A stretch of DNA of 63,881 nucleotides, the filler included. It is 4 parts of 4 records of this genome, joined end to end, with 100 filler letters (N's around TTAATTAATTAA, not from the genome) between each part and the next. Parts side by side here need not be neighbours in the genome. Positions count along the whole stretch, not along the records: positions 14,244 to 35,544 come from DRR723986_9331; 3 more parts are not named here. The stretch is one strand, 5' to 3'. Position 1 is the stretch's first letter. The number at the start of each line of letters is the position of its first letter. This document shows positions 1 to 35,544 of this stretch, piece by piece. The position numbers and the translations under genes are program-made. The notes under the pieces were generated by a model that ran no database searches, was not told where the DNA came from, and saw only the letters and a list, made by a program, of their open reading frames with translations.

Positions 1-9
1 CGCAGTGGT

Positions 10-29: not shown

Positions 30-30
30 A

Positions 31-68
31 TACGATAAAAAGGGTCCCAACGGGGCCCTTTTTACGTA
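31..68. terminator. Bidirectional intrinsic terminator-like hairpin
   Basis: AAAAAGGGTCCC-AAC-GGGGCCCTTTTT stem with A/T tracts on both sides. Confidence 0.7.
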
Positions 69-103
69 TTTGACGCAAGCGTCTACTTCGTGAAGGGCTG
101 CGC

Positions 104-218
104 GAGTAGGACTTGAACTGTTAAAGGTTCATATGGAGCAAGCCCCAAATGAAATGGGGGCGCAGCGGAATGACGAGGAAGCCGCAAGGCAACGAGACTA
201 ATCCTACTCCCAAAACCA
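104..218. repeat. tRNA-linked repeat unit (inverted T-arm copy plus a further 3'-end copy)
   Basis: GAGTAGGACTTGAAC (104-118) is the reverse complement of T-arm-like GTTCAAGTCCTACTC; AATCCTACTCCCAAAACCA lies at 200-218. Confidence 0.6.
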
Positions 219-254
219 AAAAAGTCCTATCGCATTATTTGGTTGAGGCTTTCT

Positions 255-1040: not shown

Positions 1041-1043
1041 GAG

Positions 1044-1688
1044 TTACTCCGTTTTTTCTACATTGAGATTAAGACGTAATTCGACCAGCGCGCCCAAGTG
1101 GCCTTCTGGTGTGAACTTCTGCAATGTTATGATCTCTTGAAACGTCCCGCTAGCACCTTCAAATTCACCCGTGCCACTCTTAATAATACCGTAACCGGAC
1201 GGCAGTGGTCCGTATGTTGTTGCGTGTGTTTTGTTGCCTGTCCAGGTTTGTCCTGATTGAATGGCATCTGAGAATATCTTCACGTCTTCTTCAATCATGG
1301 TTTCCTGTTGGTACAAATATAGGCTGCCGCGCCCTTGCAACATAACGGTCCAAAGAGTGTTCCATATCAAAGGGGTGCCCTCTGGCACGTTTTTTGGAAA
1401 CTCTTCCAGTTCACTGGCGATGCCGATTACAGTACCAGATTTTTCACGGATGATACCTGTGAAGGCTAACATGTTAGCAATGGGTGTGCCCGCTAAAGTT
1501 GGAATACCCTCAGGGAAAGATGCAAGAGGGACTGTATTGCCATGTGTCATAGACAGCAGGTCTTTTGAGGTGCTGAGGAAGAATGAAAGCGTGTAGCTAT
1601 CAGGAGGGGTTTCTGCATCACCGGCATGTGCTTGAAGCGGCAAAGTGAAAATGAATAGAATGCTGACAATTAATTTCGGGCAAAACAC
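1044..1688 (-). CDS. Secreted hypothetical protein, dirigent/allene oxide cyclase-like beta-barrel
   Basis: Signal peptide ending AHA, IIKSGTGEFEGASGT motif, GGAG RBS before GTG, operonic with the TBDR and SDR. Confidence 0.7.
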   Translation of the reverse strand: MFCPKLIVSILFIFTLPLQAHAGDAETPPDSYTLSFFLSTSKDLLSMTHGNTVPLASFPEGIPTLAGTPIANMLAFTGIIREKSGTVIGIASELEEFPKNVPEGTPLIWNTLWTVMLQGRGSLYLYQQETMIEEDVKIFSDAIQSGQTWTGNKTHATTYGPLPSGYGIIKSGTGEFEGASGTFQEIITLQKFTPEGHLGALVELRLNLNVEKTE

Positions 1689-1746
1689 TATTTTTCTCCA
1701 AAAAGTGCCGGTGTTAATTTAAAAAGATACAGTTTTGGATTGATGT

Positions 1747-1781
1747 AAAATCGCCCCCTGTCTTGCGAGAGGAGGCGATGT
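1747..1781 (-). terminator. Hairpin after the TBDR gene (partial terminator or mRNA stabiliser)
   Basis: Minus strand reads ATCGCCTCCT-CTCGCAAGAC-AGGGGGCGAT-TTT. Confidence 0.55.
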
Positions 1782-1789
1782 TGGTGCGA

Positions 1790-4165
1790 TTAAAAGTCTT
1801 TTCTAATAGATAATCCCCACTCACGCGGTCTGCCATATAGAAGGTTAGCAGTACCGAAGCTGGTTAGCGTTTGATATCCATTTGTAACGTAAACTTCGTC
1901 CGTAAGGTTTGTAACGGATAAAGCCGCGGACCAACCGCCTTCTTCATGTTCATAAACTAAGCGCGCATTGAAAAGGTTGAAAGCGGGCGCTTCAATTAGG
2001 GCAGTGTTTTGCACATCGTTTTGTGTGCGCGCCTGATAGGACCAATCACCCCGAATATACATCGAAGAGTTATTCCCAACATCCCATGAGTACTGAATAC
2101 CCGCAGTTGCGGTCCATTTAGGTGTTTGCGGTGGTACGGCATCGATAGTGATCTCTTGCACGCCGGGATTTAGTTCAGTGAACTCAAAGTCTACATATCC
2201 CGCACTGGCATTAAGGTCCAGTCCAGGCGTTGGTCGTGCTTGCATTTCAAGCTCAAGCCCGCGGATTTTTGCTTTACCGGCGTTTTGGATTCTGAGCACC
2301 AAATTGCCAGTCGAATCAGCGCTGATGCTACCAAGCTGAATATCGGTATAGTTTCCTTGGAATGCCGCGATATTAAGCTGTAGCCGGTTTTCCAACCACT
2401 GCGTTTTCGTACCAATTTCATACGAAACGATTGTCTCGGGGTCAAACGAGTCCACAGCTGCGTTTGTTGTTGGTCGTCCATTGAAGCCACCACTTTTATA
2501 CCCTTTTGAAACCGATACATAAGTCATCACATCATCGGTCCAGCGATAGTCAAGGCTTCCCATCGGCGTAAATGATGTCCAGCTGTTTTCAACGGTTGTC
2601 TCAGGAATGATGAAAGCACCAGACACATCACGTGTGTGCTCTAATACATAGGTTTTTTCCTCATGAGAAAGGCGCGCTCCTGCGGTTAATCGCAGTTTGT
2701 CTGTGATGCTGTAAGTGCCTTGTGTGAAGGCTGCGTAACTCCGGATATCAATCTCGTTGAAAATATTAAATTCGAGATCAAGCCCGATATTGATAGGGTT
2801 GCCCGGTCCGCCCGGGGCGGTTGGTGCGTCGAGAGGTGAACCATTTAACGTGCCAGGTAAACTTTCAAGGCCGTTAAAAAGCCCTGACGCCAAGTTCACG
2901 TCATTTACATCCTTGCCGTATTCATCAAAGTAAAACAGGCCTAAAACCCATTCGAGTTTGTCGTCGAAACTGGTCCCGATCAGTTGCAGTTCCTGACTGA
3001 TCTGGTTCTGATCCTGTTCTTGCTCAGTTTCCGCATAGGTAATAGGGGATCCGTCAGTATCACTGCCAAAGACAGCATTCATCTCGCGGTAGGCGGTGAT
3101 TGATTTTAAACTTAAATTCTCGTTGATGTCCCAGTTTACGGTCATGGCTAAACCGTAAGCGTCAAGATTGTTAGTGTTTGGGCCTGTAGCGTAAGATGTG
3201 AATGGATCACCTGTTATGAAGGCGCTGCTCATGGTTTGACCGGCAGGCCCACCAACCAAAGCATTCCATAGTCCGGTGAGGCCGCCAAAAGTTGCTCCGT
3301 TATCATCAAAGAATGACAAGGCTACCAATGGTCCTTTTTCGCGTTCTCGTAAGTAATCTGCCACTAGGTCAACAGTTACAGTGTCGGATGCCAACCAACG
3401 CAGTGCTAGCCGGCTAGAAACCGCATTTTCATCACCAGCAGTATCAAGAACCTTATCTGTGCCAAACTCAAGTCTTTTGCCAAAACCATCGCGGTTTTTG
3501 GAAGAGGCAGATACTTTTGCAAACACTGTATCAGAAAGAGAAAAATCGAAACTTGCTCTGGCATCAAGGCGGTTGAAGGTTCCGATCGTAACATCGGCCC
3601 ACCCACCAGCCTCACCTGTGGGCTTTTTAGACGTCAGACTAACAGCGCCGCCTATAGTGTTTTTACCAAAAAGAGTGCCTTGAGGACCACGAAGTACTTC
3701 TACACGCTCCAAGTCTAGTAAGTCCATTGCACCCCCAAGGGTACGCGGGTGGAACACACCATCAATGTATATCCCCACACCAGGGTCCGTTGTGAACAAA
3801 AAGTCTGTTTGGCCGATACCCCGAATGTAAATTTGTATATTGTTGCCGCCACCACTGGAACTTGGGGATGTGTTCATGATTACATTTGGCGCAAACGCAG
3901 CAATGTCGACTAAGTTACGCAGACTGCGTTGTTCAAGCTGATTGTTGGACAAGGCGGTAATAGCCAGCGGCGTTTCTTGAAGGCTTTCTGTTCTTCTTCG
4001 CGCTGTGATAATAATCTCTTCTAACGAAGTCGCATTCTCTTGATCTGCATTTGATTGCGCGTAAGCAATATTAGATGTACCGCTTAGCAATGCCGCAAGC
4101 GCAATGGGTGCTAAAGTATATTTGTTGCACGTATGTTCGCGGGCCTTGGCCTTTTTGTAGATCAT
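1790..4165 (-). CDS. TonB-dependent receptor
   Basis: Signal peptide, TonB box LEEIIITARR, plug motif ERVEVLRGPQGTLFGKN, C-terminal Phe. Confidence 0.95.
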   Translation of the reverse strand: MIYKKAKAREHTCNKYTLAPIALAALLSGTSNIAYAQSNADQENATSLEEIIITARRRTESLQETPLAITALSNNQLEQRSLRNLVDIAAFAPNVIMNTSPSSSGGGNNIQIYIRGIGQTDFLFTTDPGVGIYIDGVFHPRTLGGAMDLLDLERVEVLRGPQGTLFGKNTIGGAVSLTSKKPTGEAGGWADVTIGTFNRLDARASFDFSLSDTVFAKVSASSKNRDGFGKRLEFGTDKVLDTAGDENAVSSRLALRWLASDTVTVDLVADYLREREKGPLVALSFFDDNGATFGGLTGLWNALVGGPAGQTMSSAFITGDPFTSYATGPNTNNLDAYGLAMTVNWDINENLSLKSITAYREMNAVFGSDTDGSPITYAETEQEQDQNQISQELQLIGTSFDDKLEWVLGLFYFDEYGKDVNDVNLASGLFNGLESLPGTLNGSPLDAPTAPGGPGNPINIGLDLEFNIFNEIDIRSYAAFTQGTYSITDKLRLTAGARLSHEEKTYVLEHTRDVSGAFIIPETTVENSWTSFTPMGSLDYRWTDDVMTYVSVSKGYKSGGFNGRPTTNAAVDSFDPETIVSYEIGTKTQWLENRLQLNIAAFQGNYTDIQLGSISADSTGNLVLRIQNAGKAKIRGLELEMQARPTPGLDLNASAGYVDFEFTELNPGVQEITIDAVPPQTPKWTATAGIQYSWDVGNNSSMYIRGDWSYQARTQNDVQNTALIEAPAFNLFNARLVYEHEEGGWSAALSVTNLTDEVYVTNGYQTLTSFGTANLLYGRPREWGLSIRKDF

Positions 4166-4275
4166 CTGGTCTCCCCTTTACCATAAGCATCATTATCCGA
4201 GTACGATCATTTGTACTGAAAGCATTGATCTTTCCTATGTTATGACCATTAAGGCACAGGGATTTGGGTCCGCCT

Positions 4276-4447
4276 ATAACGAAAAATACTCAATTTTTCA
4301 AAAGCAAACAGCCCGCGGTATTTGGATGTTGCTGCGGGCCCAAACTGATGATTTTCTAATTTGAAGCGATGGTCAAATATAACGACACATAGTTTTATTA
4401 AGCGCGCCCGCGGAAAACCCACAGTGGTTTGTAGGTAAAAATACTCA
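4276..4447. promoter_or_regulatory. Repeated 17-bp putative regulator boxes in the divergent TBDR/LuxR promoter
   Basis: ATAACGAAAAATACTCA (4276), CCCGCGGAAAACCCACA (4407), GTAGGTAAAAATACTCA (4431); similar boxes at 9927-10026. Confidence 0.45.
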
Positions 4448-4599
4448 TTTTTCCACTCCCTTGCACATGGTAGAAAAAATAGACATAGAATGGTATGTTT
4501 GTAATTGGGAGGCATATGGCCGTATGGTTAAATGCAATACAAACAAGACTAGATGTTAATGCTAAGAACTTCATTTCGGCTTCTGGGAGGGAAAAGGCA

Positions 4600-5730
4600 A
4601 TGCACGACTTGCGAGCTTCCGATTTGAACCAAGTGCTTGAAGTGGGGCGCTTGTCCAATGAATGTAATTCGGCAGCAGATCTTCAGAATGAAGCTGTTAC
4701 GAAAATGCAGCACTCATTACATGCAGATAGCAGCGTCATGATAAATATTTGCCGTGAAGGCAAGTCCCTCAGGTGTGAGGCAAATAAGGCATTTGATCAT
4801 CCTGAAAGTGAGATGGAACGCTGGTGTAGTCAGTATCAACTACAGGACCCATTTGTGAGTTGTTATATAAATGAGTTTAGGGCGCGTCCTAGCAATGTGA
4901 TTGTATCTAATCAGGTGATTGGAGACCGGGAGTACCAAACCAGCAAATTCTATAATGATTTCTTACGACCAATGTCTATATACCACGTAATGGTGGTTGG
5001 GCTGCGCGCCGGGAATTTCCCCTTTGGGCTTATCGGATTTCATCGACCGAAAAGTGCCCGTGCTTTTTCAGACAGAGAAGTTGCGTTAGCGGAATTGATG
5101 TCGCCCTACATTGTTGCAGCGAACCAGAAAGTATGCGCGCGCGACAAGGTTGCAGAGCGTGAACAGCTAATTGAAACGCTTGCTTCGGATAAACTTTATG
5201 ACAGTGTTATTTTACTGGACGATAACCTGTCTCCAACCTTTATAAGTAAGGGTGCCGCAGCACTTTTAAAAAATTCTGCAGGCCGTTACGTTTTCCCTAC
5301 TCAGGAACAGGCTGTTATGCCGCCGTCACTGATAGAGCGATGTAAAAGGCTCGCTAGAGCGATTGTTGCTAATGCTACTACTGATGGTTTGCAAAATTTT
5401 GATCTGCAAATTAGTGCAAACATTGCACCAATCAGTGTTTCCGTGCGACCGATTGATTATGGCACTCAAGGACTGCGCTTTATGGTGTGCCTTAAAACAA
5501 AAAATGCAGAGCCAGCGCTTTCAAATGACAGCATAAAGCGTTTTGGTTTAACATCTCGGCAGGCCGATATTGCTCAATTGGTAGGGGTCGGTATGACTAA
5601 CGCGGACATTGCAGGAAAGCTATGCATTAGCACCAGAACTGTTGAGAACCATCTGCGAACAGTATATGAAAAAGCGGGCGTTAATAACCGTACCAGCTTA
5701 GTATACCGTATGGCTCAAGGCGTGCATTAG
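4600..5730 (+). CDS. LuxR-family regulator with N-terminal GAF-like sensor domain
   Basis: C-terminal HTH LTSRQADIA...GMTNADIA..LCISTRTVENHL; GAF-like segment FHRPKSARAFSDRE; GGGAGG RBS before ATG 4600 (ORF is open from 4495). Confidence 0.88.
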   Translation: MHDLRASDLNQVLEVGRLSNECNSAADLQNEAVTKMQHSLHADSSVMINICREGKSLRCEANKAFDHPESEMERWCSQYQLQDPFVSCYINEFRARPSNVIVSNQVIGDREYQTSKFYNDFLRPMSIYHVMVVGLRAGNFPFGLIGFHRPKSARAFSDREVALAELMSPYIVAANQKVCARDKVAEREQLIETLASDKLYDSVILLDDNLSPTFISKGAAALLKNSAGRYVFPTQEQAVMPPSLIERCKRLARAIVANATTDGLQNFDLQISANIAPISVSVRPIDYGTQGLRFMVCLKTKNAEPALSNDSIKRFGLTSRQADIAQLVGVGMTNADIAGKLCISTRTVENHLRTVYEKAGVNNRTSLVYRMAQGVH

Positions 5731-5755
5731 AGACAGCACTTATTGGCTCATTTTA

Positions 5756-6832
5756 TTAATGTAGTTTAGCTTTCAGCGTCTTTACTACCAAGTCTAACCC
5801 TTGGCGCCCAGCATCGATTCCCCCTGCGAATGACATGAAACCGTGAATGGTTGTTTCAAAACATTTGTATTCAACTGGCACACCAGCCTCTTGTAATCGG
5901 TCAGCATAATGCTTGCCCTCATCTCGAAGGATATCATACCCCGCCGTAATAATAAGCGCAGGCGGTAAGCCAGATAAGTCTTTTGCCAAGATAGGCGATG
6001 CTAGAACTGACTTCGAATCTTCACTGTCTTCAAAATACATCCCTCTGAGCCATGTTAAACTGTCCCTGGATAGAAAGTAATCACCATTACCGTATGTGTC
6101 GTGCGACGCATAATTGCTGTCGGGCCTTAAGGTAACAGAGGGATATACCAGCAGCTGATATGCGATGGACGGGCCGCCGCGGTCTCTGGCCATTTGTGCA
6201 ACAACAGCACTAATATTGCCGCCAGCACTGTCGCCCGTAATGGCAATGCGGTTTTTGTCGCCGCCTATAGCGCCGACATTCTCTGATGCCCAGGTTAAGG
6301 CGGCATAAGCATCTTCAACCCCTGCCGGGAAAGGGTTTTCAGGGGATAATCGGTAATGTACATTAATCACGATGACGTTGCCGTTTTTGGCATAATAACG
6401 TGATACATTCTCGTGGGTATCCATGTCGCCAAGAGCAAAGCCTCCACCGTGATACAAAACTAGAATAGGGAGTGTTTCATTGCCGCTCAGTGCCACGGGC
6501 CAGTATATTCTTACAGGAATGTCACCGTTAGGCCCTGGTATCGTGCGCTCAACACGTTTGTGGACATCTGTTTTTTCAATATCCAATTTGAAGGTCATTT
6601 CTCTTAAGGCGCTACGAGCCTCAGCAACAGATAGTTCGTGAAGTTGCGGGCCGCCTTTTCCTTGGTCAAGTATGGCTTGTGTTTGCGGATCGACAGTCAT
6701 GGTTTGGTCTTTCGAGCTAATTGCAGTTAAAACAGCATTGTCTTCGGCTCCCGCCCACACCGTGACAGGTGCTAAGCTAAGCGTTGATAGTATCAGCATA
6801 ATTTGGATTACGCTGTGTTTTTTCATGGACAC
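5756..6832 (-). CDS. Alpha/beta hydrolase, HSL-family esterase with signal peptide
   Basis: HGGGF, GDSAGG, D-x-L-R-D-E-G and HGF motifs. Confidence 0.92.
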   Translation of the reverse strand: MSMKKHSVIQIMLILSTLSLAPVTVWAGAEDNAVLTAISSKDQTMTVDPQTQAILDQGKGGPQLHELSVAEARSALREMTFKLDIEKTDVHKRVERTIPGPNGDIPVRIYWPVALSGNETLPILVLYHGGGFALGDMDTHENVSRYYAKNGNVIVINVHYRLSPENPFPAGVEDAYAALTWASENVGAIGGDKNRIAITGDSAGGNISAVVAQMARDRGGPSIAYQLLVYPSVTLRPDSNYASHDTYGNGDYFLSRDSLTWLRGMYFEDSEDSKSVLASPILAKDLSGLPPALIITAGYDILRDEGKHYADRLQEAGVPVEYKCFETTIHGFMSFAGGIDAGRQGLDLVVKTLKAKLH

Positions 6833-6833
6833 A

Positions 6834-7379
6834 CTATCCCAATGTCCTGATCGGGTTGCTGCCGTCCCAATTGATGGATGGTTCTTTAACAGCTGAAAAC
6901 AATTCTTCCACTGCAGGGTTCACTTCAATCAATTCTATCATGCCGCCTAGCTTTGAAAGGGTATCAACGTAAGCCGCCCGGCCATCCACTGGTGCCACTC
7001 TGCCGTAGAGAGCCTCTGCATTTCCCGCAGCGACGTGGTCAGCAAGGTCTTTGTCAAATTGGGCGGTGGACACGCCCCAATGATGAAAACCATAGCCGCG
7101 TGCTTCTAACACATCGGTATACACCGAAGGTGCGCCGCTGTGTTGAACGATGAGCTCAAAGCACATGGAACCGGAAAAAGCCATGGCGAGCGTAATATCT
7201 AATTCGCTGGGTTTCCCTCTATACCTGTAGTCTTCCAGTGCAAAATGTTCAAAGACGAAAAAAGGCCCAATGTTTAGGGTGGTGGTCCAATGATTCATGG
7301 ATTTTTCAAGGTCTTCTACAATATGAGCAACTTGCATGACCCCGCCGAGAGGCTGTCCGAATGATAGTGTTTTTGTCAT
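6834..7379 (-). CDS. VOC (glyoxalase/methylmalonyl-CoA epimerase-like) protein
   Basis: QVAHIVEDLE, FELI, GFHHWG and IELIE metal-ligand pattern. Confidence 0.85.
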   Translation of the reverse strand: MTKTLSFGQPLGGVMQVAHIVEDLEKSMNHWTTTLNIGPFFVFEHFALEDYRYRGKPSELDITLAMAFSGSMCFELIVQHSGAPSVYTDVLEARGYGFHHWGVSTAQFDKDLADHVAAGNAEALYGRVAPVDGRAAYVDTLSKLGGMIELIEVNPAVEELFSAVKEPSINWDGSNPIRTLG

Positions 7380-7407
7380 GTTTTACATCCCTTGGGCTCG
7401 TAGCCAT

Positions 7408-9054
7408 CTATTTGAAGGAAAAGTCTTTATAGGTTTCTCGTATGGCTGTTTTTTTGATTTTGCCTGTTGCCGTTAGCGGCAACGTGTCAACAATATGGAT
7501 CTCGTCAGGTAACCACCATTTAGCGACTTTCTTTTGTAAAAAGGCCAACACTTCACCCGGTTCAATAGTTTCCCCGGCAACAGGGACAACCAGCATTAGG
7601 GGGCGTTCTTCCCATTTCGGGTGATACACACCAATTACAGCGGCCTGTGAAACTTTTGCGTGACCAACGGCAGCATTCTCAAGATCAATGGAACTGATCC
7701 ACTCACCGCCGGATTTAATAACATCTTTGGTTCTGTCGGTGATTTTCATATATCCGTATGGGTCGAGCGTTGCGACATCACCGGTTGGAAACCAGCCCTG
7801 ATCATCCAGGTGGGTTTCGTTCTCTCGTTTATAGTAGCCTTTGGCGGCCCAGCCACCTCTCACCCATAAGTCGCCAGATGTTTCACCGTCTTGTGGAATG
7901 GGGTTTCCTGATGGGTCGACAATTTTTAATTCCAACCCGAACATAACACGCCCCTGCTTCGAGAGGACGTCGGCACGCTCGCTTTTGGAGAGAGTGTCAA
8001 CTACTGGCGTAGCAGAAGCAAGCGTGCCTAAGGGGCTGATTTCAGTCATCCCCCATAACTGAAGAACTTCGACGCCGTATGTATCTCGGAAGCGATCTAT
8101 CATAGCCATCGGAACGGCTGATCCGCCAATTGTTGTTCTGTTAAGACTGGGGATGGAAGCATTTGTTTTATCCAGATGCTCGAGCAGCATGGTCCAGACA
8201 GTTGGCACAGCACAGGCAAAGGATACATGCTCTTCATTAATGAGCGAAAGAAGGCTGACAGGGTCCATTTTAGTGCCAGGCAACACCAGTTTTGCGCCAA
8301 CCATCGGCGCAATATAGGGCATGGCCCAAGCATTGGCATGATACATGGGGGCAATGGGCAAGATACAATCTTTTGGTCCCAATGCCATGGCGCCTACTTG
8401 CGCGGCACCAAGGGCGTGAAGAACAGTTGACCGATGACTGTAAAGTACGCCTTTAGGGTCGCCAGTTGTACCCGAAGTATAACAGAGGGATGACGCTAGG
8501 TTTTCATCAAACACAGGCCATGGGTAGTCTGTAGGGTTGTCGCCCAGCAAGTCTTCATAGCAGAGAGCGTTTGAAAGGCCTGTCTCTGGCATATCAGCTT
8601 TATCACACAAGACAATATAACGCTGAATTGTCGGTAAACGGCTTGCCAATTTTTCTACCAACGGCAGATAGTCAGGGTCTAGAAACAGTAGCGTATCTTC
8701 AGCATGATTAATTATGTAAACAATCTGGTCTTCAAATAAGCGCGGATTAACCGTATGCAGCACTGCGCCGATACCGGAAACACCGTAAAATAATTCGAAA
8801 TGACGGTGCGTATTGCCGGCTAAAGTGGCAATGCGGTCGCTGGTTTTTGTCCCTAAACTATTCAGACCATGCGCCAATTTTCCAACCCGCTTGTGAGCAT
8901 CCGCGTATGTGTAGCGGTGCAGCGTTTCTTGCCCGGACTGGGAGACAATTTCACGTGTCCCATGGTAGCTTGCAGCATACTGTATTAACGAGCTTATTAG
9001 CAGGGGAACATCCTGCATCAGGCCGAATAGGGGGGTGTTGGATGACGTGTTCAA
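7408..9054 (-). CDS. Fatty-acid/acyl-CoA ligase (AlkK/DmdB-like)
   Basis: [19 protein letters not shown] and [16 protein letters not shown] motifs; TTG start at 9054 with GGAG RBS (ORF is open to 9111). Confidence 0.92.
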
Positions 9055-9067
9055 ATGTGTGCTCCAA

Positions 9068-9865
9068 CTATCCCGAATGCCGGGAAGGCATGCCTGCAAG
9101 CTGTCCGCCATCTACAAGAACCTGAGACCCTGTCATCATGCCGGAGCTGTTTGAGGCGAGGAATAATATCACATTCGCAATATCGTCGGGAGTTGCGACC
9201 CGGCCGATGGGAACCTCTTGTGCCATGCCAGCCAGCATGGTCGCACGGTCCGGAAACATTTCTGCAATCGGGTCTAACATTTCGCTATCAACATAGGTGG
9301 GGTGCACCGAGTTACAGCGTACACCCGGCGCATGTTTGGCGCAGTGCAGGGCAACTGATTTAGTCAGCATCGTCACGCCGCCCTTGCTGGCGCAGTAACC
9401 AGCGATGTCCTCGCCGCCAACCAAGCCGCCAATGGACGATATGTTGATGATTGAACCACCGCCGCGGGTTTCACGCATAGCTGCAATCGTATGTTTGCAC
9501 CCAAGAAAAACGCCTGTTAGGTTGACTGAAAGCATCCAGTTCCAGTCTTCCAAAGTTAGTTCTTCAAAGTTGCCTGAAGTGCCTACACCTGCACAGTTAA
9601 CGAGAATATCAACGGCCTCAAATTGTTTGACTGTGATGTCTAGGGCGCTCTTCCAGCTTGCTTCTTGGCTCACATCTAGCTTGACTGAAAGGGTATTTGG
9701 CCCCAGTCCTTCTGCAAGGGTTTTTGCCATGTCAAAATTGATATCTGCGATGATAACTTTTGCCCCCTGATTAACCAGCTTACTCACAGTTGCCTTGCCT
9801 ATGCCTGATGCGCCGCCGGTAACAAGGGCCACTTTGCCATCCAGTTGTAAAATATCGTCTTTCAA
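9068..9865 (-). CDS. SDR family oxidoreductase
   Basis: TGGASGIG, NCAG, YCASK and NSVHP motifs; probable TTG start at 9865. Confidence 0.92.
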   Translation of the reverse strand: MKDDILQLDGKVALVTGGASGIGKATVSKLVNQGAKVIIADINFDMAKTLAEGLGPNTLSVKLDVSQEASWKSALDITVKQFEAVDILVNCAGVGTSGNFEELTLEDWNWMLSVNLTGVFLGCKHTIAAMRETRGGGSIINISSIGGLVGGEDIAGYCASKGGVTMLTKSVALHCAKHAPGVRCNSVHPTYVDSEMLDPIAEMFPDRATMLAGMAQEVPIGRVATPDDIANVILFLASNSSGMMTGSQVLVDGGQLAGMPSRHSG

Positions 9866-9926
9866 ATTATTCGCCCCTAGCAAAATTTTTGCATAGATAG
9901 AAGGCATTGAAGAGGTATTTCGGGCA

Positions 9927-10026
9927 ATAGCGGAAAACACTCAAATCATTATAATCTTTTTGTCATCCACGGCTTCTATGAACATCTGAAAAAAGATAAA
10001 ACCGCTCATATAAGGGTTTTACGTCA
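9927..10026. promoter_or_regulatory. Putative regulator boxes in the second divergent promoter
   Basis: ATAGCGGAAAACACTCA (9927), AAAGATAAAACCGCTCA (9992) and ATAAGGGTTTTACGTCA (10010) resemble the boxes at 4276-4447. Confidence 0.4.
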
Positions 10027-10126
10027 TGGCAACCCGACCAAGCAGGATTATCGTTTAATTAGCAGCCCTTTTCATAAGGAAAGGGGGCCAATTGGCTTGA
10101 TTTTGAATTTGGAAAAGGAAACGACC

Positions 10127-10600
10127 ATGACTCTGCAAAACACAATAATGAAAGCTATCAAGCCAACTTATCCATCGTTCACAAACCCGGGCGAAATTCC
10201 TTGGGTGCAGTGGGTAATGGAAGGCACATATTTTAAGCTTCTGAATGTTAACGAACTAACAGGCGGTTTTACCATGTTGTTGAAAGTGGACGCGCATGAT
10301 GACCCTGTGCCGGTGCACGGACATGTTGGCGGCGTTGAAGTGTATGTCATAGAAGGTGAGTTTGGTTATGACGATGACCGGGGCGCCGCAGGGTGGTATG
10401 GTTTTGAACAAGGTGGTACACTCCATGAGCCCAATTCACCCGGCGGCACGACTATGTTTGCAATCGCTCATGGTCCGATCATTGGCTATAATCCTGATGG
10501 CACAGTTGCCGCTGTAGTTGACGCAAAATTTATGTACCAAATGGCTAAAGAAGCCGGCACTCACAAACATCTACGCGTTGGCTTTCCAGGTGAAGGATGA
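10127..10600 (+). CDS. 2,4'-dihydroxyacetophenone dioxygenase-family (ChrR-like cupin) protein
   Basis: IPWV, YFKLL, HxH (PVHGH) and ExGGTLHEP cupin motifs; AAGGA RBS. Confidence 0.75.
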   Translation: MTLQNTIMKAIKPTYPSFTNPGEIPWVQWVMEGTYFKLLNVNELTGGFTMLLKVDAHDDPVPVHGHVGGVEVYVIEGEFGYDDDRGAAGWYGFEQGGTLHEPNSPGGTTMFAIAHGPIIGYNPDGTVAAVVDAKFMYQMAKEAGTHKHLRVGFPGEG

Positions 10601-10684
10601 AGCCAGCACCGCCCCATTCCTATTCATTAGATATTCTGAAACTAACTTTCATAGGTCTCCCGTACCCTATATTGGAGTTTGATC

Positions 10685-11644
10685 ATGGTGAAACCTTTTG
10701 CCTCTTCTACAGACCTCACAGAGAAAACCGAGACGTTGGAAATTCTTGCTGACGGCGTATATGCTTTAACCGCTGAGGGCGATCCGAATGTGGGCGCAAT
10801 CGAGGGCGAAGACTTCGTTGTGGCTATTGAGGCACGTGCTACGCCGCAGGCAGCGTGCGATTGGCTGCAACAGCTACGCACGCATACTGATAAGCCTGTA
10901 AGATATCTGGTGTTAACGCACTATCATGCTGTTCGCGTGCTGGGCGCATCTGCTTTCGGCGCTCAAGAAATTATCACACATGAAATGACGCGCCGACTGA
11001 TTAAGGAGCGCGGGATGCAGGATTGGGACAGCGAGTTTGGGCGCATGCCCCGGTTGTTCAAAAATCCTGATGAGATTCCCGGCCTCACACAGCCAACGCA
11101 AACCTTCCACGATAATATGCGTATCGAACTGGGCGGTGACAGGGGGTATTTGGAGTTAAAATTTTGTGGACGCGGTCATACAGCCGGCGACATTGCTGTC
11201 TGGTACCCTAAACACAAAGTTTTATTTGCCGGGGATCTCGTAGAAGCAGAAGCAGCTCTATACACGGGCGATGCTTTCCATATGGATTGGTCTGGCGATA
11301 CCCTCGATCAGGTAAAAGCATTTGGCGCTGAATTCTTAATTGGCGGTAGAGGGGCTGTTGCTCGTGGCAACGCGTCGGTTAATGCCGCCATTGACCAAAC
11401 TCGAGAGTTTCTGGTTGGCATGCGCGATAACGTAAAGTCGGTGCATGAACGTGGCGGTACACTGAAAGAAGCTTTTGAGGCAACGCATGCGGCGTTAGGG
11501 CCCAAGTTTGGTCAGTGGCCAATTTTTGAACATTGTTTGCCTTTCAACGTGCAGCGTTTGTGGGATGAATATGATGGCATTGACTGGCCGCGCATTTGGA
11601 CCATGGACCGTGACCGTGAAGTTTGGGCGCAACTTCAAGGATAA
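10685..11644 (+). CDS. MBL-fold metallo-hydrolase
   Basis: THYHAVR, GRGHTAGD and FAGDL motifs; family typically found with the FAD monooxygenase and DUF2783. Confidence 0.88.
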   Translation: MVKPFASSTDLTEKTETLEILADGVYALTAEGDPNVGAIEGEDFVVAIEARATPQAACDWLQQLRTHTDKPVRYLVLTHYHAVRVLGASAFGAQEIITHEMTRRLIKERGMQDWDSEFGRMPRLFKNPDEIPGLTQPTQTFHDNMRIELGGDRGYLELKFCGRGHTAGDIAVWYPKHKVLFAGDLVEAEAALYTGDAFHMDWSGDTLDQVKAFGAEFLIGGRGAVARGNASVNAAIDQTREFLVGMRDNVKSVHERGGTLKEAFEATHAALGPKFGQWPIFEHCLPFNVQRLWDEYDGIDWPRIWTMDRDREVWAQLQG

Positions 11645-11649
11645 ATTCC

Positions 11650-13242
11650 ATGCCATCTGCCGAGATACCAAAGTTTAAATCCAAACCTTACAAAGCGGCA
11701 CCTGAACTTTCCGGCAGGGGGACATCAGATCATCCCTTCATTATCGTCGGGTCTGGCCCGATAGGATTGGCGCTTGCCTTAGACCTTGCCATAAAGGGTC
11801 ATCATGTGACGCTTCTCACGGCCTTTGATTTTATAGCATTGGGCAGCAAGGCGATCTGTTTTTCCAAACAATCTCTAGATATTTTTGACAGGCTCGGTGT
11901 TGGTAAACGGATTGTGGACAAAGGGGTTGTCTGGAATGTAGGCAAGCTTTTCTGGAAGGACAAAACTGACCCTGTGTATCAGTTCGATATGTTGCCTGTG
12001 AAGGATCAGAAAAACCCAGGGTTTATTAATATTCAGCAATATTTTGTTGAGGACTACTTGGTTGATGCTCTGGAAGAAATGGACAATGTTGATATTCGCT
12101 GGGGGCATAAGGTTCAGGATATTCAGGTTGGAGAGGAAAGCGCAACACTCTCGGTTGCTACCCGCGATGGAGACTATAAACTGGCAGCTCAATATGTGCT
12201 TGCCTGTGACGGGGCGCGCTCCAAAATCCGGGACTGCATGGGGTTGGATTTTGAGGGGCGTATCTTTGAAGATAATTTCCTGATTGCTGACGTGCGTTTC
12301 AAGCAGGACCGGCCATCGGAACGCTGGTTTTGGTTTGACCCACCGTTTTGCAAAGGGGGTACTGCACTTCTGCACAAGCAGCCTGACGATATTTGGCGGC
12401 TTGATTTCCAATTAGGCTGGGATGTTGACCGCGAAGCGGCAACCTTGCCGGAAAATGTGCAACCGTTTGTAAAAGGTATGCTGGGTGATGATGTGGAATT
12501 CACCAAGGAATGGTATTCAGTTTATACTTTCCAGTGTCGGAGGATGGAGCGTTTCCTCCATGGGCCTGTAATTTTTGTCGGTGACAGCGCACACTTAGTA
12601 TCACCGTTTGGTGCCAGAGGCGCGAATGGCGGATTTTCCGATGCTGAGAATGTCGCCTGGAAGCTGGATCTTATACTGAACAGCGAAGCACCAAAGAGTT
12701 TGCTAGAAAGCTATAATTACGAGCGCGTTATGGGGGCCGATGAAAATATATTGAATTCCAGCCGTTCGACCGATTTTATGACACCTAAAAATGCACAGTC
12801 TCAAGCGTTTAGGAATGCTGTGCTTGAACTTTCCGATGATTATGAGTTCGCCCGTCCCTTCATTAATTCAGGCCGTCTATCGGTCTCAACGCCTTACCAT
12901 GACAGCCCTCTCTCAACACCTGATGTTGACGAGTGGGACGGCGGCGTTAAACCCGGGCATACATGCCTCGATGCGCCGATTGAACAAGATGGAAAACAGG
13001 CATGGCTACTGGAACAGTTAGGTGGGTGTTTCAAGCTCCTGCATTTCGGCGAAAATTCACCCAAAGTTGATATTGAGACGATTGTTTTGAGGAAAAATAG
13101 TCGATCGGCGCGCCGTTACGATGCCGAAGAAGGTGCCACCTATCTTATCCGGCCTGATCAGGTGGTTGCTGCTCGCTGGAAAAGTGCCGAAGTTGATAAA
13201 GTTCAGCAAGCGATTGCAAGGGCAAAAGGGTACGATTTATGA
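11650..13242 (+). CDS. FAD-dependent aromatic monooxygenase (MhpA/PheA-like family)
   Basis: GSGPIG, CDGARS, GDSAHLVSPFGARGAN and C-terminal LIRPDQVV motifs. Confidence 0.9.
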   Translation: MPSAEIPKFKSKPYKAAPELSGRGTSDHPFIIVGSGPIGLALALDLAIKGHHVTLLTAFDFIALGSKAICFSKQSLDIFDRLGVGKRIVDKGVVWNVGKLFWKDKTDPVYQFDMLPVKDQKNPGFINIQQYFVEDYLVDALEEMDNVDIRWGHKVQDIQVGEESATLSVATRDGDYKLAAQYVLACDGARSKIRDCMGLDFEGRIFEDNFLIADVRFKQDRPSERWFWFDPPFCKGGTALLHKQPDDIWRLDFQLGWDVDREAATLPENVQPFVKGMLGDDVEFTKEWYSVYTFQCRRMERFLHGPVIFVGDSAHLVSPFGARGANGGFSDAENVAWKLDLILNSEAPKSLLESYNYERVMGADENILNSSRSTDFMTPKNAQSQAFRNAVLELSDDYEFARPFINSGRLSVSTPYHDSPLSTPDVDEWDGGVKPGHTCLDAPIEQDGKQAWLLEQLGGCFKLLHFGENSPKVDIETIVLRKNSRSARRYDAEEGATYLIRPDQVVAARWKSAEVDKVQQAIARAKGYDL

Positions 13243-13448
13243 GCAAACTTAAAACTAACATTAATATAACGCACCATGATGATCTGTATCAGATGATTGT
13301 TGAGCTGCATGACGGACGTAGTGAGGCTGAAAGTCAGAAAATTAATGCAAAGTTGATTTTCATTCTCATGAATCAAATCGGTGATAAGCAAGTTGTTACT
13401 GATGCTATTCAGCTTGTTGAAGCGTCTGCATTAAAATGGGGCGATTGA
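13239..13448 (+). CDS. DUF2783 domain small protein
   Basis: DDLY..LHDG.SE.ES..INAKLI.ILMNQIGD pattern; ATGA overlap with the upstream gene. Confidence 0.8.
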   Translation: MSKLKTNINITHHDDLYQMIVELHDGRSEAESQKINAKLIFILMNQIGDKQVVTDAIQLVEASALKWGD

Positions 13449-13636
13449 ATATACAAGAAAATGGGTATGCTTGTGTCTCCATCTCCATCCAGTCTTCCAC
13501 CGCGACTTTGAGACATCCATCATGTTGCGTACCGCTGTTGCAATGCCAAGGAAACAGTTGTTTTTTGTAAGCGCGTGATGGGTGCGATATATGTATCAGC
13601 TTTTTCGGAAGACAATGTGCTATCAACCTGCGAGCA

Positions 13637-13735
13637 TCACCCTATATGCTGTTTGGTGACACGGTTGGCATTTAAATGCGCGACGCCTGAGGCCACTAAA
13701 TCTTCGGCAGGATTGAAAATACCGTCGAGAAGTAT
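13637..13735 (+). pseudogene. Remnant of a fumarylacetoacetate hydrolase-family gene (C-terminus)
   Basis: Translates as SPYMLFGDTVGI*MRDA*GH*IFGRIENTVEKY, matching the recalled FAH-family end PFMxFGDTVRIEMxDxxGxSIFGAIEQTV, with three in-frame stops. Confidence 0.65.
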
Positions 13736-14099
13736 TGTTCAGTAAGTGATCATGAATGAACTTTGTATATGTGAACCATCAACATAATATTCGTATCTAA
13801 CCCATCAAAGGTCTAACTTTATCGAGGGGAGTAGATTTTATATTTGCTCTCACCGACATTACTTGCCCTGTGAATGCAACATTCGCGATGAGTGATGTAT
13901 CTCCAAGCTCCTCAGAGGGTGAAATTGTGTATTTAAGCAAAGTTGACTATTTTGAGCAAATACACTTAAAAAGGCGTAGTTTGTACCTACTGGGCTTTAG
14001 AATGAGCTTTTCGAATCACAGAACTCACACAAAATTGCACACACGATTTTTCATCAATTCAAATAGATTAATAAAATCAGATAGTTATAGACAAATCAA

Positions 14100-31830: not shown

Positions 31831-32326
31831 GGGTGACCGGTCTACGCAGAATTGTCCGAATTGTCTTGAGGCAGAAACCAAGACTCTAGTCTAAAGACTT
31901 TGCCGAAGTCGCACACCTATCGTATAGCTATCGTAAGTGGCCCAATCGAATCGAATGGCCGGCCCCCGTATCCAGCCGCGTTTTGGTAGCTATTTGCCCA
32001 TGAAACTTGGCGGCCCGTAAGCTGGGAGCTTGAGTTCGAAGAGCGATCGCTGGTCGAGCGCGGGAGATGTGATGGTTGTGAGGAGTGTTCGGATTGCTGC
32101 GGCCTTGTCCTTTCTGCGAATCCGTCGTGGGGCGAGGTGGAAATGCGGCCATTCTTGGCGGCAACCCGCCGCACGGGACGCAGTGGTGTGTATGCTTTAA
32201 GGGACAACACTACCCCCGCGAAACTACCTCCGGCGAATCCGTGACAAGGTCGGGCTGGGCGATGGGCTTAGCTGAAAATGAACGCTGCGGGCGGGCGAGT
32301 GTTGCGAACCACAGGAGACGATGTTT

Positions 32327-32962
32327 ATGGCGCGGCCTCTAAGATTTGAACTTGGCGACGAAGAGTTTGCCTTGGAGATGAATAAGGTTGACCGTGCAAA
32401 GCTATACGGAACCAAGGAAGTCGAAGTGGTCGACTCCGATGAATCCGCCTGCGAATTGGCTACGCTGGCCGATGACGGTCGAACACTCATCGGCAAAGGT
32501 GGCACCGGCCTCGGCTGGATCGATGCTGACGGGCACTGGTGCGACAAGACCGAGCTGAAGCCCATTAATGTAGATGGCGACGAGGTCATTCCGGTCAAGA
32601 GCTCCTTCTCGTCGGCGATCAAACTGTTTGATACCGCAACGGTCGACGAGTACTTCGAACACAACATCCGCTTGCTCTATGAATTGCAACCGGTCGACGC
32701 AGATTGTCAAGTTTCTGAATCGTACAAGCAGTTGGTTTCGGAGCTGAAGAAGGGCACCATCTTTACATTCCCCTACAGCTTTCGCGGAGGGTTGGAAGCA
32801 GATGCTGCATTCCTGCTAACCAATGATCAAGGGGCCATGATGATGGCTGTCGGTTCGAAGACGGAGGTTGCTTATGTCGGCCTGCAAGCGGCTGCGGCTG
32901 CCGCCGAGGGAGAGCAAGCAGATGCTCCTGCGGCTGACGACTTCGACTTTGACATGATCTAG
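32327..32962 (+). CDS. Hypothetical protein, putative divergent Ku-core protein A
   Basis: AGGAGA RBS. By-eye match to bacterial Ku: YELQP..SESYKQLVSELKK..FPYSFRG..AAFL..AMMM versus recalled YFLEP..SKSYVLLAKTLAE..VHFTLRN..LAAL..VMMV. Acidic tail. Confidence 0.6.
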   Translation: MARPLRFELGDEEFALEMNKVDRAKLYGTKEVEVVDSDESACELATLADDGRTLIGKGGTGLGWIDADGHWCDKTELKPINVDGDEVIPVKSSFSSAIKLFDTATVDEYFEHNIRLLYELQPVDADCQVSESYKQLVSELKKGTIFTFPYSFRGGLEADAAFLLTNDQGAMMMAVGSKTEVAYVGLQAAAAAAEGEQADAPAADDFDFDMI

Positions 32963-33000
32963 AGTCCACTAGAATTCCGAATCTACTGGGAAGATTATCC

Positions 33001-33720
33001 ATGCCGGAAATCAATATCGCTAACAGCAAGGGCCGCGACGCACTGGTTGGGCTCGAAAGCGTGACAAGCACCAATCCGGTGCGATGGGTTGATGCACAAG
33101 GCCGCCAGGCTGCAAGTGCGCGTTACGTCAAGGCAACTCTTGGGCACGACATCGAAAGCCTGAAACGGGAACATGGCGAACTACCATCTGTAGGCAAAGC
33201 GATCTTGGAAGGCGATCCTGAGATTGATCTGACAAACACGGGGCGGTTCCTGAAGGAAACGGCGAGGGTGTTCGTCGATGCTCGAGGCGAAATCGTCCGA
33301 AATGTTCGCTTCTTCGAAGTGATCAAGAATCCCGACGGCTCAGAGCGTGAACGTCGCGTGCGGCAACTGGCGGACCCGAACGTTTCTGGGGACTCACCGC
33401 TCAAGTGGTCGGGCGTGTTCATTCCGAAGGAGAAAGCAGTACGGAAGTTTGTCTTCAGCGGCAAGGCTCAACTGCAGCACGTCAACGGCCTCACGTACGA
33501 CTTCCTGTTCGGAATGGCGAAAGACTTAGAGGACCGCAATAGCCTGATGCTTCTCGGGGCCGGCAACGACAGCAAACAACCATTGATTCTTCGCCGCGGC
33601 GGCACTCCCTACCGGGGATTCTTAGAAGGACGTACCGATGGTGACAAGTACTGTCTTATCTTGCACTTTTCCAATCTAGAGCTGAAGGTTGCATCGGAAA
33701 GCAAGGGAGGCGAAAAATGA
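33001..33720 (+). CDS. Hypothetical protein, putative divergent Ku-core protein B
   Basis: By-eye match to Ku at VGLESVT..VRW..RY, VDARGEIV, FIPKE, YDFLFGMAKDLED, LILRR and LILHF..EL; ATGA overlap with the ligase gene. Confidence 0.6.
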   Translation: MPEINIANSKGRDALVGLESVTSTNPVRWVDAQGRQAASARYVKATLGHDIESLKREHGELPSVGKAILEGDPEIDLTNTGRFLKETARVFVDARGEIVRNVRFFEVIKNPDGSERERRVRQLADPNVSGDSPLKWSGVFIPKEKAVRKFVFSGKAQLQHVNGLTYDFLFGMAKDLEDRNSLMLLGAGNDSKQPLILRRGGTPYRGFLEGRTDGDKYCLILHFSNLELKVASESKGGEK

Positions 33721-35189
33721 GTAACTTAGCGCTTACGATTGACCAAGGCCGATTCACAGTGAAGTTGGGAGACTATTCCGTCGGTCCAGCCACTGCATTG
33801 TCGGACTCCAACATTCTGAGTCTGACACAGGATTATCGCCGGCAAGTTGCAGGGCGTATGGCACCGCTTTCGCCAGAGGATGTTTCGGCTCGGATTCCGC
33901 AAGGGGAATACCATGCAAGCCGAAAACTGGATGGCGAGTTCACAGCACTTGTCTATCAAGATGGGCATGCATTCTGCATTAACCCAGGTGGAACCGTGCG
34001 CTCTGGCCTGCCGTTCATGGATGAGGCCGCGAAGGCTTTTGAAGCAGCGGGCATCAACTCGGCCATCATCGCCGGGGAGCTGTATGTTCATTTGCCAAAG
34101 AAGAAACGAAGCCGTGTTCACGATGTCACTAAGATTGCTCGGAATCCAAAGACGGCGGCAGATCTGAAGAAGTTGCGTTTTGCGGCTTTCGACGTGATTC
34201 AGATCGACGGGCAGCCGGGCGGCGAGTCGTACGCTGACCGATTCCAAACTGTGGAATCAATCTTTGCCAAAGGGAAGCTTGCCACCACGGTTGAAACGCA
34301 AATCGTTTCAGGTGCGGATGAAATCAAGAGTCTGGTCGCGAAATGGGTGGAGGGCGAAGAAGCCGAGGGGGTTGTTGTTCGCAGTGACGACACCGGTTCA
34401 TTCAAGATCAAGCCACAACACACGCTGGACGTTGTCGTCGTAGGCTTCACGGAGGCGGTCGACCAACGGGCTGGCCTGCTGCATGACCTGCTCGTTGCCG
34501 TCATGCGGAAGGACGGTAGCTTTCACGTTTTGACCAAAGTCGGCGGTGGCTTCAGTGAAGATCAGCGACGCGAGATGCTCAGCGACTTGAAGGACATGGT
34601 CGTTGAGAGCGAGTACATCGAGGTCAACTCAGACTACGTGGCTTATCAAATGGTCAAGCCTGAGTGGGTGATCGAGATATCCTGTTTGGATTTGATCTCG
34701 CAAACGACCCGCGGTGGGCCGGTGAATCGAATGGCCATCGATTTCTCGGAAGATGCTGGGTACCGCGTCGTTCGTCGGCTTCCGCTCGCAACCGTCATCT
34801 CTCCTCAGTTCGTGCGTGTTCGTGACGACAAGAATGTTGAACAGTCGGACATTCGCATTGAACAAGTCAGTGAACGCGTCGTAGTCGACATGCTTGACGC
34901 CGATGCGCGAACATTTACGCTACCCGAGAGTGAGGTTGTCAAACGTGAAGTGTTTACGAAGGTGCTCAAGGGACAAACGATGGTCCGCAAGTTCGTTTTG
35001 ATCAAGACGAACAAAGAACAGTCGGGCGAGGATTTCCCTGCCTACGTACTTCACTACACGGACTTCAGCCCGAACCGCAAGGATCCGCTGGCCCGCGATG
35101 TTTTTGTAAGCAATTCTGAAGCTCAGATTCAGTCAATGTTTCTCTCGCTGAAGGAGAAGAACATCAAGAAGGGCTGGGCCGAAGCGTAA
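33717..35189 (+). CDS. ATP-dependent DNA ligase-family protein with C-terminal WGR-like domain
   Basis: Motif I RKLDGE, III IAGELY, IIIa AFDVI, IV EGVVVR, V KIKP; OB fold (LDVVVVGF, KVGGGFS, VKPEWVIEI); VI PQFVRVRDDK. Confidence 0.88.
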   Translation: MSNLALTIDQGRFTVKLGDYSVGPATALSDSNILSLTQDYRRQVAGRMAPLSPEDVSARIPQGEYHASRKLDGEFTALVYQDGHAFCINPGGTVRSGLPFMDEAAKAFEAAGINSAIIAGELYVHLPKKKRSRVHDVTKIARNPKTAADLKKLRFAAFDVIQIDGQPGGESYADRFQTVESIFAKGKLATTVETQIVSGADEIKSLVAKWVEGEEAEGVVVRSDDTGSFKIKPQHTLDVVVVGFTEAVDQRAGLLHDLLVAVMRKDGSFHVLTKVGGGFSEDQRREMLSDLKDMVVESEYIEVNSDYVAYQMVKPEWVIEISCLDLISQTTRGGPVNRMAIDFSEDAGYRVVRRLPLATVISPQFVRVRDDKNVEQSDIRIEQVSERVVVDMLDADARTFTLPESEVVKREVFTKVLKGQTMVRKFVLIKTNKEQSGEDFPAYVLHYTDFSPNRKDPLARDVFVSNSEAQIQSMFLSLKEKNIKKGWAEA

Positions 35190-35544
35190 ACTCCTTGGCC
35201 ACGTCGAATTGACGACTTTTCGCCATCGAAGTGAATACTCGTGCTAACTACAGGCCGCGTTAGCGTGGGGGTTAGGCCAGAGCATCAAAAGCCGGGCCGC
35301 GATCTCGACTGGTCGGTTTGGTTCAATTTCTTCTAATATCTTTGAACAAACGCTAGCAGCCAGCGCATCATTCCTCTCTAGGGCGTGAACCTAGCCCCTG
35401 CGGACTTCTTCCGGGCATTGGGGCGACCAATCGTGGCAGGCTTGGCCGGTCCTCTGTTGACAGCATTTTTCCTTGCCAATCGATGATTTCGGTTATTTGC
35501 AATACTGCAGAAAAAACAAGTTATACTGGTCGTCAAGCTTGACG

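Follow-up and report, generated by a model that had tools for sequence, protein, structure and literature searches.

A conserved three-gene unit of planctomycetes pairs two proteins of predicted Ku-type fold with a minimal DNA ligase and may serve DNA end joining

The stretch of DNA analysed here (63,881 nucleotides, composed of four parts from four records and referred to as the window) carries, in the part derived from record DRR723986_9331, a tightly packed operon of three genes, all on the + strand at 32.3–35.2 kb: ORF A and ORF B, which encode hypothetical proteins, and a gene for an ATP-dependent DNA ligase. On balance, we lean towards reading this operon as a self-contained three-protein module that binds and seals DNA ends in a manner resembling nonhomologous end joining (NHEJ). 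The triad is probably a sequence-invisible variant of Ku-plus-ligase end joining; we infer both its function and its stoichiometry. By sequence, A and B are not members of the Ku family as defined by the PF02735 and COG1273 profiles, and the resemblance to Ku emerges at the level of predicted structure. The operon and its elements are as follows.

32313..32317, + strand: Shine-Dalgarno-like AGGAG, read directly in the sequence, 9 nucleotides (nt) upstream of the ATG at 32327 and 3 nt upstream of the ATG at 32321
32327..32962, + strand: ORF A, 211 amino acids (aa) from ATG 32327, or 213 aa from the alternative ATG 32321
32387..32629, + strand: insertion in ORF A, candidate bridge; residues 23–103, between barrel strands 2 and 3, conserved
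32876..32959, + strand: C-terminal acidic linker of ORF A, predicted to be disordered, with the DFDMI motif; residues 186–213, predicted local distance difference test (pLDDT) <50
32963..33000, + strand: intergenic spacer of 38 bp, holding a weak GGGAAG ribosome-binding site before ORF B
33001..33720, + strand: ORF B, 239 aa
33717..35189, + strand: ATP-dependent DNA ligase, 490 aa; its start overlaps the ORF B stop as ATGA, with GGGAGG ahead
33996..34391, + strand: nucleotidyltransferase domain of the ligase; residues 94–225, PF01068, 39.7 bits against a cut-off of 26.2
34470..34832, + strand: OB domain of the ligase; residues 252–372, PF04679, 39.3 bits against a cut-off of 27.5
34854..35186, + strand: C-terminal domain of the ligase; residues ~380–490, conserved, without a Pfam match
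35300..35325, + strand: weak terminator-like hairpin ~110 nt past the ligase stop, from a consensus scan only, in which sites were fewer than in shuffles

ATG 32327 is the likely start of ORF A, because AGGAG lies 9 nt upstream of it and the homologues begin with MAKPL, an N-terminus that fits this codon. Residue numbers nevertheless refer throughout to the 213-aa version (ATG 32321). An ORF search agrees with a preliminary description of this region, made by a model from the letters of the DNA, in placing three same-strand ORFs at these coordinates, and the ribosome-binding site, 38-bp gap and ATGA overlap listed there can all be read in the sequence, as AGGAG, the spacer, and GGGAGG followed by ATGA. 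A promoter and terminator scan of the window gave no signal above shuffles.

Database searches yielded 729 homologues of ORF A and 2733 of ORF B, every one of them named 'hypothetical'; those of ORF B form 551 clusters at 50% identity. Neither protein matched a Pfam, NCBIfam, PADLOC or PHROG model at E values up to 1, and the profiles of their homologues retrieved nothing relevant, and no Ku, from the sequences of the PDB. As a reference for canonical Ku, an alignment of 22 planctomycete Ku sequences from the same bacterial order was used. Profile–profile comparison with this alignment (hhalign) gave a probability of 0.1% for ORF A and 0.2% for ORF B, and sub-domain comparisons were also null. 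The profiles of A and B, compared with each other, gave a non-significant probability of 0.4%, and sub-domains did no better. The preliminary description had matched short motifs of both proteins to the motif order of mycobacterial Ku; since the profile comparisons with canonical Ku are null (0.1% and 0.2%, with null sub-domains), these correspondences lack statistical support. As sequence links neither protein to Ku, nor the two to one another, common descent has to be argued from the predicted fold alone.

For ORF A, the predicted fold points clearly to Ku. Its AlphaFold2 (AF2) model, based on 43 homologues (pLDDT 69, predicted template modelling score (pTM) 0.58), gave 53 Foldseek matches in the PDB at E ≤ 0.001 (best 1.1e-5, probability 1.00), and those listed are all Ku, with bacterial homodimers in the lead. 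A second structure search with VIA-align, which is independent of Foldseek, covered 48,161 representative PDB chains. Bacterial Ku ranked first and second (9i91_A, Z 11.3, root-mean-square deviation 2.8 with 107 residues aligned; 9vnq_A, Z 11.1), followed by Ku80 and Ku70 (Z 9.9 and 9.8), SPOC domains (Z 9.7–9.2) and then INTS13/14. Every one of the top 16 chains has the Ku/SPOC superfold; the last of them still reaches Z 7.1, and rank 17 drops to 3.9. A library of viral structures returned only two matches at E ≤ 0.001, both of them phage Ku proteins. With bacterial Ku first among 48,161 chains, the model of ORF A shows a Ku-type β-barrel.

The same model contains a candidate counterpart of the part of Ku that surrounds DNA. 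Two N-terminal strands are followed by ~80 residues (23–103) and then by the remaining barrel, and invariant residues in the homologue alignments fall within this insertion. In mycobacterial Ku, the DNA-encircling bridge is formed by residues 23–91, as described in the available text of PMC12784962. Because ORF A residues 23–103 match the bridge site and ORF A residues 2–183 align over Ku residues 1–173, the bridge-sized insertion appears to be in the right place. SPOC domains span ~125–145 residues and are ~60 residues shorter than ORF A. As modelled, ORF A combines a Ku-type barrel with a highly conserved insertion that corresponds to the Ku bridge in both size and place. The protein is strongly acidic (pI 4.2, net charge −23), and its C-terminal linker ends in a motif with the consensus DLMDFDMI, seen across 65 sequences, in which F210 and M212 are nearly invariant.

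ORF B resembles Ku less strongly. Its model has no Foldseek match at E ≤ 0.001, and the list of weaker matches is nearly all Ku. With VIA-align, 28 of the 48,161 chains reached Z ≥ 2; ranks 1–6 are Ku (Z 5.5–4.5), and ranks 7–15 are occupied by SPOC (Z 3.8–4.4), INTS13/14, MED25 and Sld7, a set shared with ORF A. Because the hits converge on one small set of folds, which is hard to ascribe to chance, we assign residues 131–233 of the ORF B model to a Ku/SPOC-type barrel with moderate confidence. The structural match to Ku that the preliminary description expected of both proteins is therefore clear for A (Z 11.3 and 11.1), whereas B shows the same fold weakly, with Z not exceeding 5.5.

The N-terminal ~130 residues of ORF B are arginine-rich and without a fold match. 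In charge the protein is the reverse of ORF A: its pI is 9.1, with many invariant Arg and Lys residues in the N-terminal half, and paired homologues keep the contrast (median pI 4.3 for A and 8.5 for B). Some B homologues (P0405, P0121, P0153 and P0401) have lysine-rich AAKKP-type tails that match the histone-H1-like HC2 model; ORF B and the ligase of the window itself are without lysine-rich tails.

The C-terminal additions of the B family are variable. There are B homologues of 350–595 aa with long lysine/alanine/proline-rich tails, and one B homologue has a SAM domain (the set with additions comprises P0364, P0405, P0401, P0121 and P0153). In the Protein Atlas, the nearest clusters to ORF B are unnamed hypothetical proteins of 226–265 aa, mostly from Nanobdellota archaea; the score of these clusters is 0.96 and their recognition lies under the reliable mark, so that they are a lead only to possible archaeal relatives.

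To judge from its sequence, the third gene encodes an intact minimal ATP-dependent DNA ligase, composed of a nucleotidyltransferase and an OB domain, plus a conserved extra C-terminal domain. Both Pfam families, DNA_ligase_A_M (E 5.7e-10) and DNA_ligase_A_C (E 8.6e-10), are matched above their cut-offs. The KxDG motif with its lysine (here KLDG) is located at about residue 70, upstream of the PF01068 match, and the other nucleotidyltransferase motifs are readable in the translation, so the earlier assignment of an intact ligase holds. The protein also matches phrog_114 (7.7e-24), and its residues 69–378 match archaeal and eukaryotic Lig1-type structures (E 3e-8). The NCBIfam models for NHEJ ligases remain far under their cut-offs (TIGR02779, 68 versus 227.75 bits; TIGR02776, 54.5 versus 373.2 bits). 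As the preliminary description anticipated, LigD accessory domains are absent: Pfam and NCBIfam detect the nucleotidyltransferase and OB domains only, with no LigD polymerase or phosphoesterase in the ligase, and across 80 loci there is no conserved neighbour beyond the triad. The enzyme thus classifies within the ATP-dependent ligase superfamily but not as LigD.

The C-terminal domain of the ligase is conserved in orthologues through residue 487–490. It had been described earlier as a WGR domain, making the protein a ligase–WGR fusion, and this designation was not confirmed by the searches made. No Pfam match to WGR was found in the last 108–130 residues even at E up to 10, PF05406 was present in 0 of the 120 ligase homologues listed, and a six-frame PF05406 search of five module-bearing genomes detected WGR at other loci only. 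Comparison of the domain with seven WGR sequences by hhalign gave a collinear, non-significant alignment (probability ~1%, P 0.057), and the domain may still have a WGR-like fold.

Some further features of the ligase family and of WGR proteins were seen. The ligase homologues P0334 and P0275 carry lysine-rich AAKKP/HC2-like tails, and many ligase homologues reach 540–630 aa with long lysine/alanine/proline-rich, histone-H1-like tails. In the Protein Atlas, the ligase C-terminus retrieved only ligase OB clusters (0.81–0.83), which we regard as a lead only. Elsewhere in module-bearing planctomycete genomes, WGR occurs in PARP-like proteins (WGR, PARP_reg and PARP catalytic domains; two loci in one genome, L108 and L109 of G001), and one module-bearing genome (G005) has a separate, true NTase-OB_2-WGR ligase (L103).

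The three genes occur together well beyond the window. A scan of one genome per species identified at least 593 confirmed B loci, of which the best 80 were analysed for neighbours. Among these 80, tblastn placed A directly upstream of B in 73 and the ligase downstream in 72, and 68 loci hold all three genes with order and strand conserved. The locus end is too close in two of the seven loci without A and in two of the eight without the ligase. Where there was room, the missing partner was encoded at full length elsewhere in the genome, in five of five cases for A and in five of five for the orthologous ligase (a sixth locus, L051, is not included). In a family sample of 151 genomes, B is found in 17, A in 18 and the ligase in 18: the same 17 genomes hold all three, 133 hold none, and the remaining one (G130) has a remnant without B.

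No conserved neighbour beyond the triad was found across the 80 loci. The flanks examined consist of ordinary chromosomal genes (truB, ABC permeases, SmpB, a methyltransferase and an Na/Ca exchanger), and no integrase or phage genes were seen in them. Given the linkage, the presence of unlinked partners elsewhere, the matching profiles and the absence of any other conserved neighbour, there is strong evidence that the unit consists of exactly three genes, which are gained and lost together. A and B are coupled to an ATP-dependent DNA ligase both by adjacency (68 of 80 loci) and by matching genome profiles. The co-occurrence of the triad in other genomes, on which the preliminary description staked its proposal, is borne out by the 68 of 80 loci, the 17 of 17 genomes and the two sets of five unlinked partners.

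Several single loci depart from the common layout. In the remnant (G130:C15:115214-116247), A residues 1–107 abut ligase residues 250–488 and B is absent, which fits a single internal deletion. In one locus (L046:6714-8715), B and the ligase lie apart, with ~2 kb of additional sequence between them. An apparent B–ligase fusion of 904 aa in another (L036, 6001-8715) was rejected as an artefact, the frame running through a masked run of N. In 11 of the 80 loci, a protein with BRCT, MerR-HTH and TPR domains is encoded just 3' of the ligase, mostly on the same strand (for example L032:8401-9546); it may be a lineage-specific regulator or a mere neighbour.

We propose that double-strand DNA ends would be held by an asymmetric Ku-like clamp assembled from acidic A and basic, arginine-rich B, most of the DNA contacts being made by B. 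Such an A:B clamp is suggested by the charge contrast, by the invariant Arg and Lys residues of B and by the lysine-rich tails of homologues. The clamp would then recruit its dedicated ligase, perhaps through the C-terminal peptide DLMDFDMI of A or through the C-terminal domain of the ligase, and the ligase would seal compatible or blunt ends without the end processing performed by the polymerase and phosphoesterase of LigD. In the minority of genomes that carry it, the module would serve chromosomal repair as an accessory system, independently of canonical Ku–LigD. A more far-reaching interpretation, which we put forward tentatively and with less than even confidence, would make it a third Ku-based end-joining machine, beside eukaryotic Ku70/80–Lig4 and bacterial Ku–LigD, in which an obligate acidic/basic heterodimer of Ku-fold proteins loads a minimal ligase via a C-terminal docking peptide. 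Prediction of the A:B complex with ESMFold2 scored 0.00; as alignments were ignored and the fold of the partner is uncertain, this value is evidence neither way.

Several observations weigh against an end-joining role. Sequence comparison relates neither A nor B to Ku, and does not relate A to B. The model of ORF B is poor (AF2 pLDDT 50, pTM 0.36), its Z values (≤5.5) lie under the reliability level of the tool, its matches cover residues 131–233 only, and the aligned barrel shows no bridge insertion. In ORF A, model confidence is lowest in the putative bridge (pLDDT <50 at residues 29–37 and 43–63), the strong acidity is unusual in a DNA clamp subunit, and SPOC domains score only ~1.5 Z below Ku. 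The ligands of SPOC domains are peptides and not DNA. The module also comes without a polymerase or nuclease.

Two other arrangements of the same proteins have to be considered. A and B could be Ku-fold proteins that form separate homodimers (A2 and B2) and not an A:B heterodimer, one serving, for example, as the end-binding ring and the other as a ligase loader or regulator. Canonical bacterial Ku is itself a homodimer (PMC12784962), A and B have no detectable mutual sequence similarity and very different charge, and they are unlinked in 5 of the ~78 informative loci. Their co-occurrence at the genome level is strict, however (17 of 17 genomes and all five unlinked cases), complementary charges are what would be expected of obligate partners, and the genetics of Ku3–Ku4 in Sinorhizobium meliloti, as set out in the available text of PMC6379672, provide a precedent for a bacterial heterodimer; we consider separate homodimers unlikely. 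Somewhat less likely still is that A and B are SPOC-like peptide or phosphopeptide adaptors that regulate the ligase or steer it to a task other than the joining of double-strand breaks, such as sealing the nicks left by excision repair, or repairing RNA. Such a role would agree with the SPOC scores (Z 9.2–9.7 against A and 3.8–4.4 against B), with the strong acidity of A and the low confidence of its modelled bridge, and with several ligase homologues that also touch the RNA_ligase Pfam model PF09414. Yet for A the top rank goes to bacterial Ku, with SPOC trailing by more than 1 Z, and the ~60 residues by which A exceeds a SPOC domain coincide exactly in position with the Ku bridge; nucleic-acid binding is indicated by the lysine-rich tails on homologues of B and of the ligase, and the best matches of the ligase are DNA-ligase families.

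The triad might instead serve in conflict over, or maintenance of, mobile DNA, by protecting, circularising or inactivating linear foreign DNA. Its distribution is patchy (4 of 101 genomes sampled from the order, 17 of 151 sampled from the family), its flanking genes are not conserved, and phages encode Ku. In addition, horizontal transfer is suggested by the B identity in records labelled Verrucomicrobia and Sandaracinaceae, which at 53% is close to the value in distant planctomycetes. Against this, neither A nor B has a PADLOC or PHROG match, the flanks examined hold ordinary chromosomal genes without integrase or phage genes, and canonical NHEJ is patchy too, with Ku in 28 of the 151 genomes. 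We regard a mobile-DNA function as improbable and retain chromosomal end joining by an A:B clamp and its ligase as the preferred interpretation.

Functionally, the closest known system is bacterial Ku–LigD NHEJ (Mycobacterium, Bacillus). Like it, the triad places a Ku-fold component beside an ATP-dependent DNA ligase, is accessory and patchy, and includes members with lysine-rich C-terminal tails. In PMC6379672, lysine-rich repeats of the Ku C-terminus are considered important both for binding to DNA and for the interaction with LigD. Unlike Ku–LigD, the triad has two unrelated-looking Ku-fold proteins in place of one homodimeric Ku, and neither matches PF02735; its ligase has no polymerase or phosphoesterase, scores 68 versus 227.75 bits and bears an extra C-terminal domain. 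ORF A is also without the helix-turn-helix 'sling' that follows the barrel of mycobacterial Ku (PMC12784962).

The closest two-subunit precedent is Ku3–Ku4 of S. meliloti, a putative heterodimer that works with LigD4. According to the available text of PMC6379672, its two Ku-type genes lie in one operon, both are required for one pathway, and the C-terminal lysine-rich repeats are present in Ku3 and not in Ku4. Like A and B, the pair is asymmetric; in Ku3–Ku4, one subunit only has a lysine-rich tail (PMC6379672). In contrast to the triad, whose subunits are invisible at the sequence level and whose ligase is minimal, Ku3 and Ku4 are ordinary PF02735 paralogues that work with a full LigD. In concept, the triad comes closest to eukaryotic Ku70/Ku80 with DNA ligase IV, that is, a diverged Ku-fold pair and a ligase without end-processing domains, and chains of Ku80 and Ku70 rank among the closest folds to A and B. 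The triad differs in having no vWA, SAP or Ku80 C-terminal domain and no XRCC4-like partner that we could see, and heterodimerisation is established for Ku70/Ku80 but is only inferred here.

Among ligases, the NTase-OB_2-WGR enzymes, which PMC7470946 notes for delta-proteobacteria and Planctomycetia in its available text, are likewise minimal, with a small domain past the OB fold, and occur in the same phylum. They differ from the triad ligase in their OB domain (PF14743 instead of PF04679) and in their WGR domain, which is not detectable in the triad ligase; when the NTase-OB_2-WGR ligase L103 is compared with the triad ligase, the nucleotidyltransferase domain alone aligns (25% identity, E 1e-6). 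Finally, SPOC and the Integrator subunits INTS13 and INTS14 have the β-barrel superfold in common with the triad, and INTS13/14 is a heterodimer of diverged Ku-like proteins. These proteins are nonetheless eukaryotic and not associated with a ligase, and SPOC domains, which are compact barrels of ~125–165 residues, have no bridge-sized insertion.

The module is accessory: its carriers number 4 among the 101 genomes of the order sample and 17 among the 151 of the family sample. Most of the best 80 loci are from Pirellulaceae or other Planctomycetota, and a few are in records labelled Phycisphaerae, Verrucomicrobia, Sandaracinaceae and Glaciecola, the last possibly through mis-binning. Overall, the species of Planctomycetota that carry the module number at least several hundred, and it is also seen in records labelled Verrucomicrobiota and Myxococcota. 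Canonical Ku was found in 37 of 101 genomes of the order sample and in 28 of 151 of the family sample. An anticorrelation between the module and canonical Ku was considered and rejected: in the family sample, Ku is present in 3 of 17 module carriers versus 25 of 134 other genomes. The corresponding counts in the order sample are 0 of 4 versus 37 of 97, and Ku was present in one of the first five module-bearing genomes checked; E. coli, taken as a control, had no Ku. The module is thus independent of canonical Ku–LigD and not a simple replacement for it.

In both samples, canonical Ku genes are often adjacent tandem pairs, an arrangement that recalls S. meliloti Ku3–Ku4. Examples are G015:C1:2823234-2824598, G038:C54:188404-189849, G024:C80:25400-26807, G019:C245:77014-78326, G119:C133:7197-8530 and G200:C10:49037-50383.

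Surveys of bacterial end joining count Ku by Pfam or COG profile, and the triad is invisible to such profiles; a 2025 survey of Ku evolution, for example, trimmed its sequences to pfam02735 (PMC11936186, available text). Should the triad join DNA ends, genomes now counted as NHEJ-negative would have to be reassessed, since 14 of the 17 carriers in the family sample are without canonical Ku, and bacterial NHEJ would be more widespread and diverse than PF02735-based surveys report. The triad would then provide a bacterial case in which to study why Ku evolved into a heterodimer, as well as a compact three-gene end-joining cassette without polymerase or nuclease, with possible use in genome engineering. 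No description of the A or B families was found in the literature, in a search that left subscription journals and supplements outside. An orthologous ligase (P0348) is encoded by Anatilimnocola floriformis, a planctomycete available in culture, so that genetics may be feasible.

Two features of nucleotide sequence were recorded in addition. The palindrome GCTAGC (often TGCTAGCA) occurs upstream of ORF A, at a distance of no more than 250 nt, in 21 of 69 loci (L001, L030, L038-L042, L047-L049, L054, L057, L059, L061, L063 and L067-L076), and none was found upstream of ORF A in this window. Its density is 1.41 per kb upstream of A versus 0.11 per kb elsewhere in the loci, a background that is mostly coding, and the palindrome therefore plays no part in the argument. 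The G+C content of the window is 0.44–0.49 over positions 1–14000 versus mostly 0.52–0.57 over positions 14001–63881, with dips to ~0.49 near 34–40 kb and 44–48 kb.

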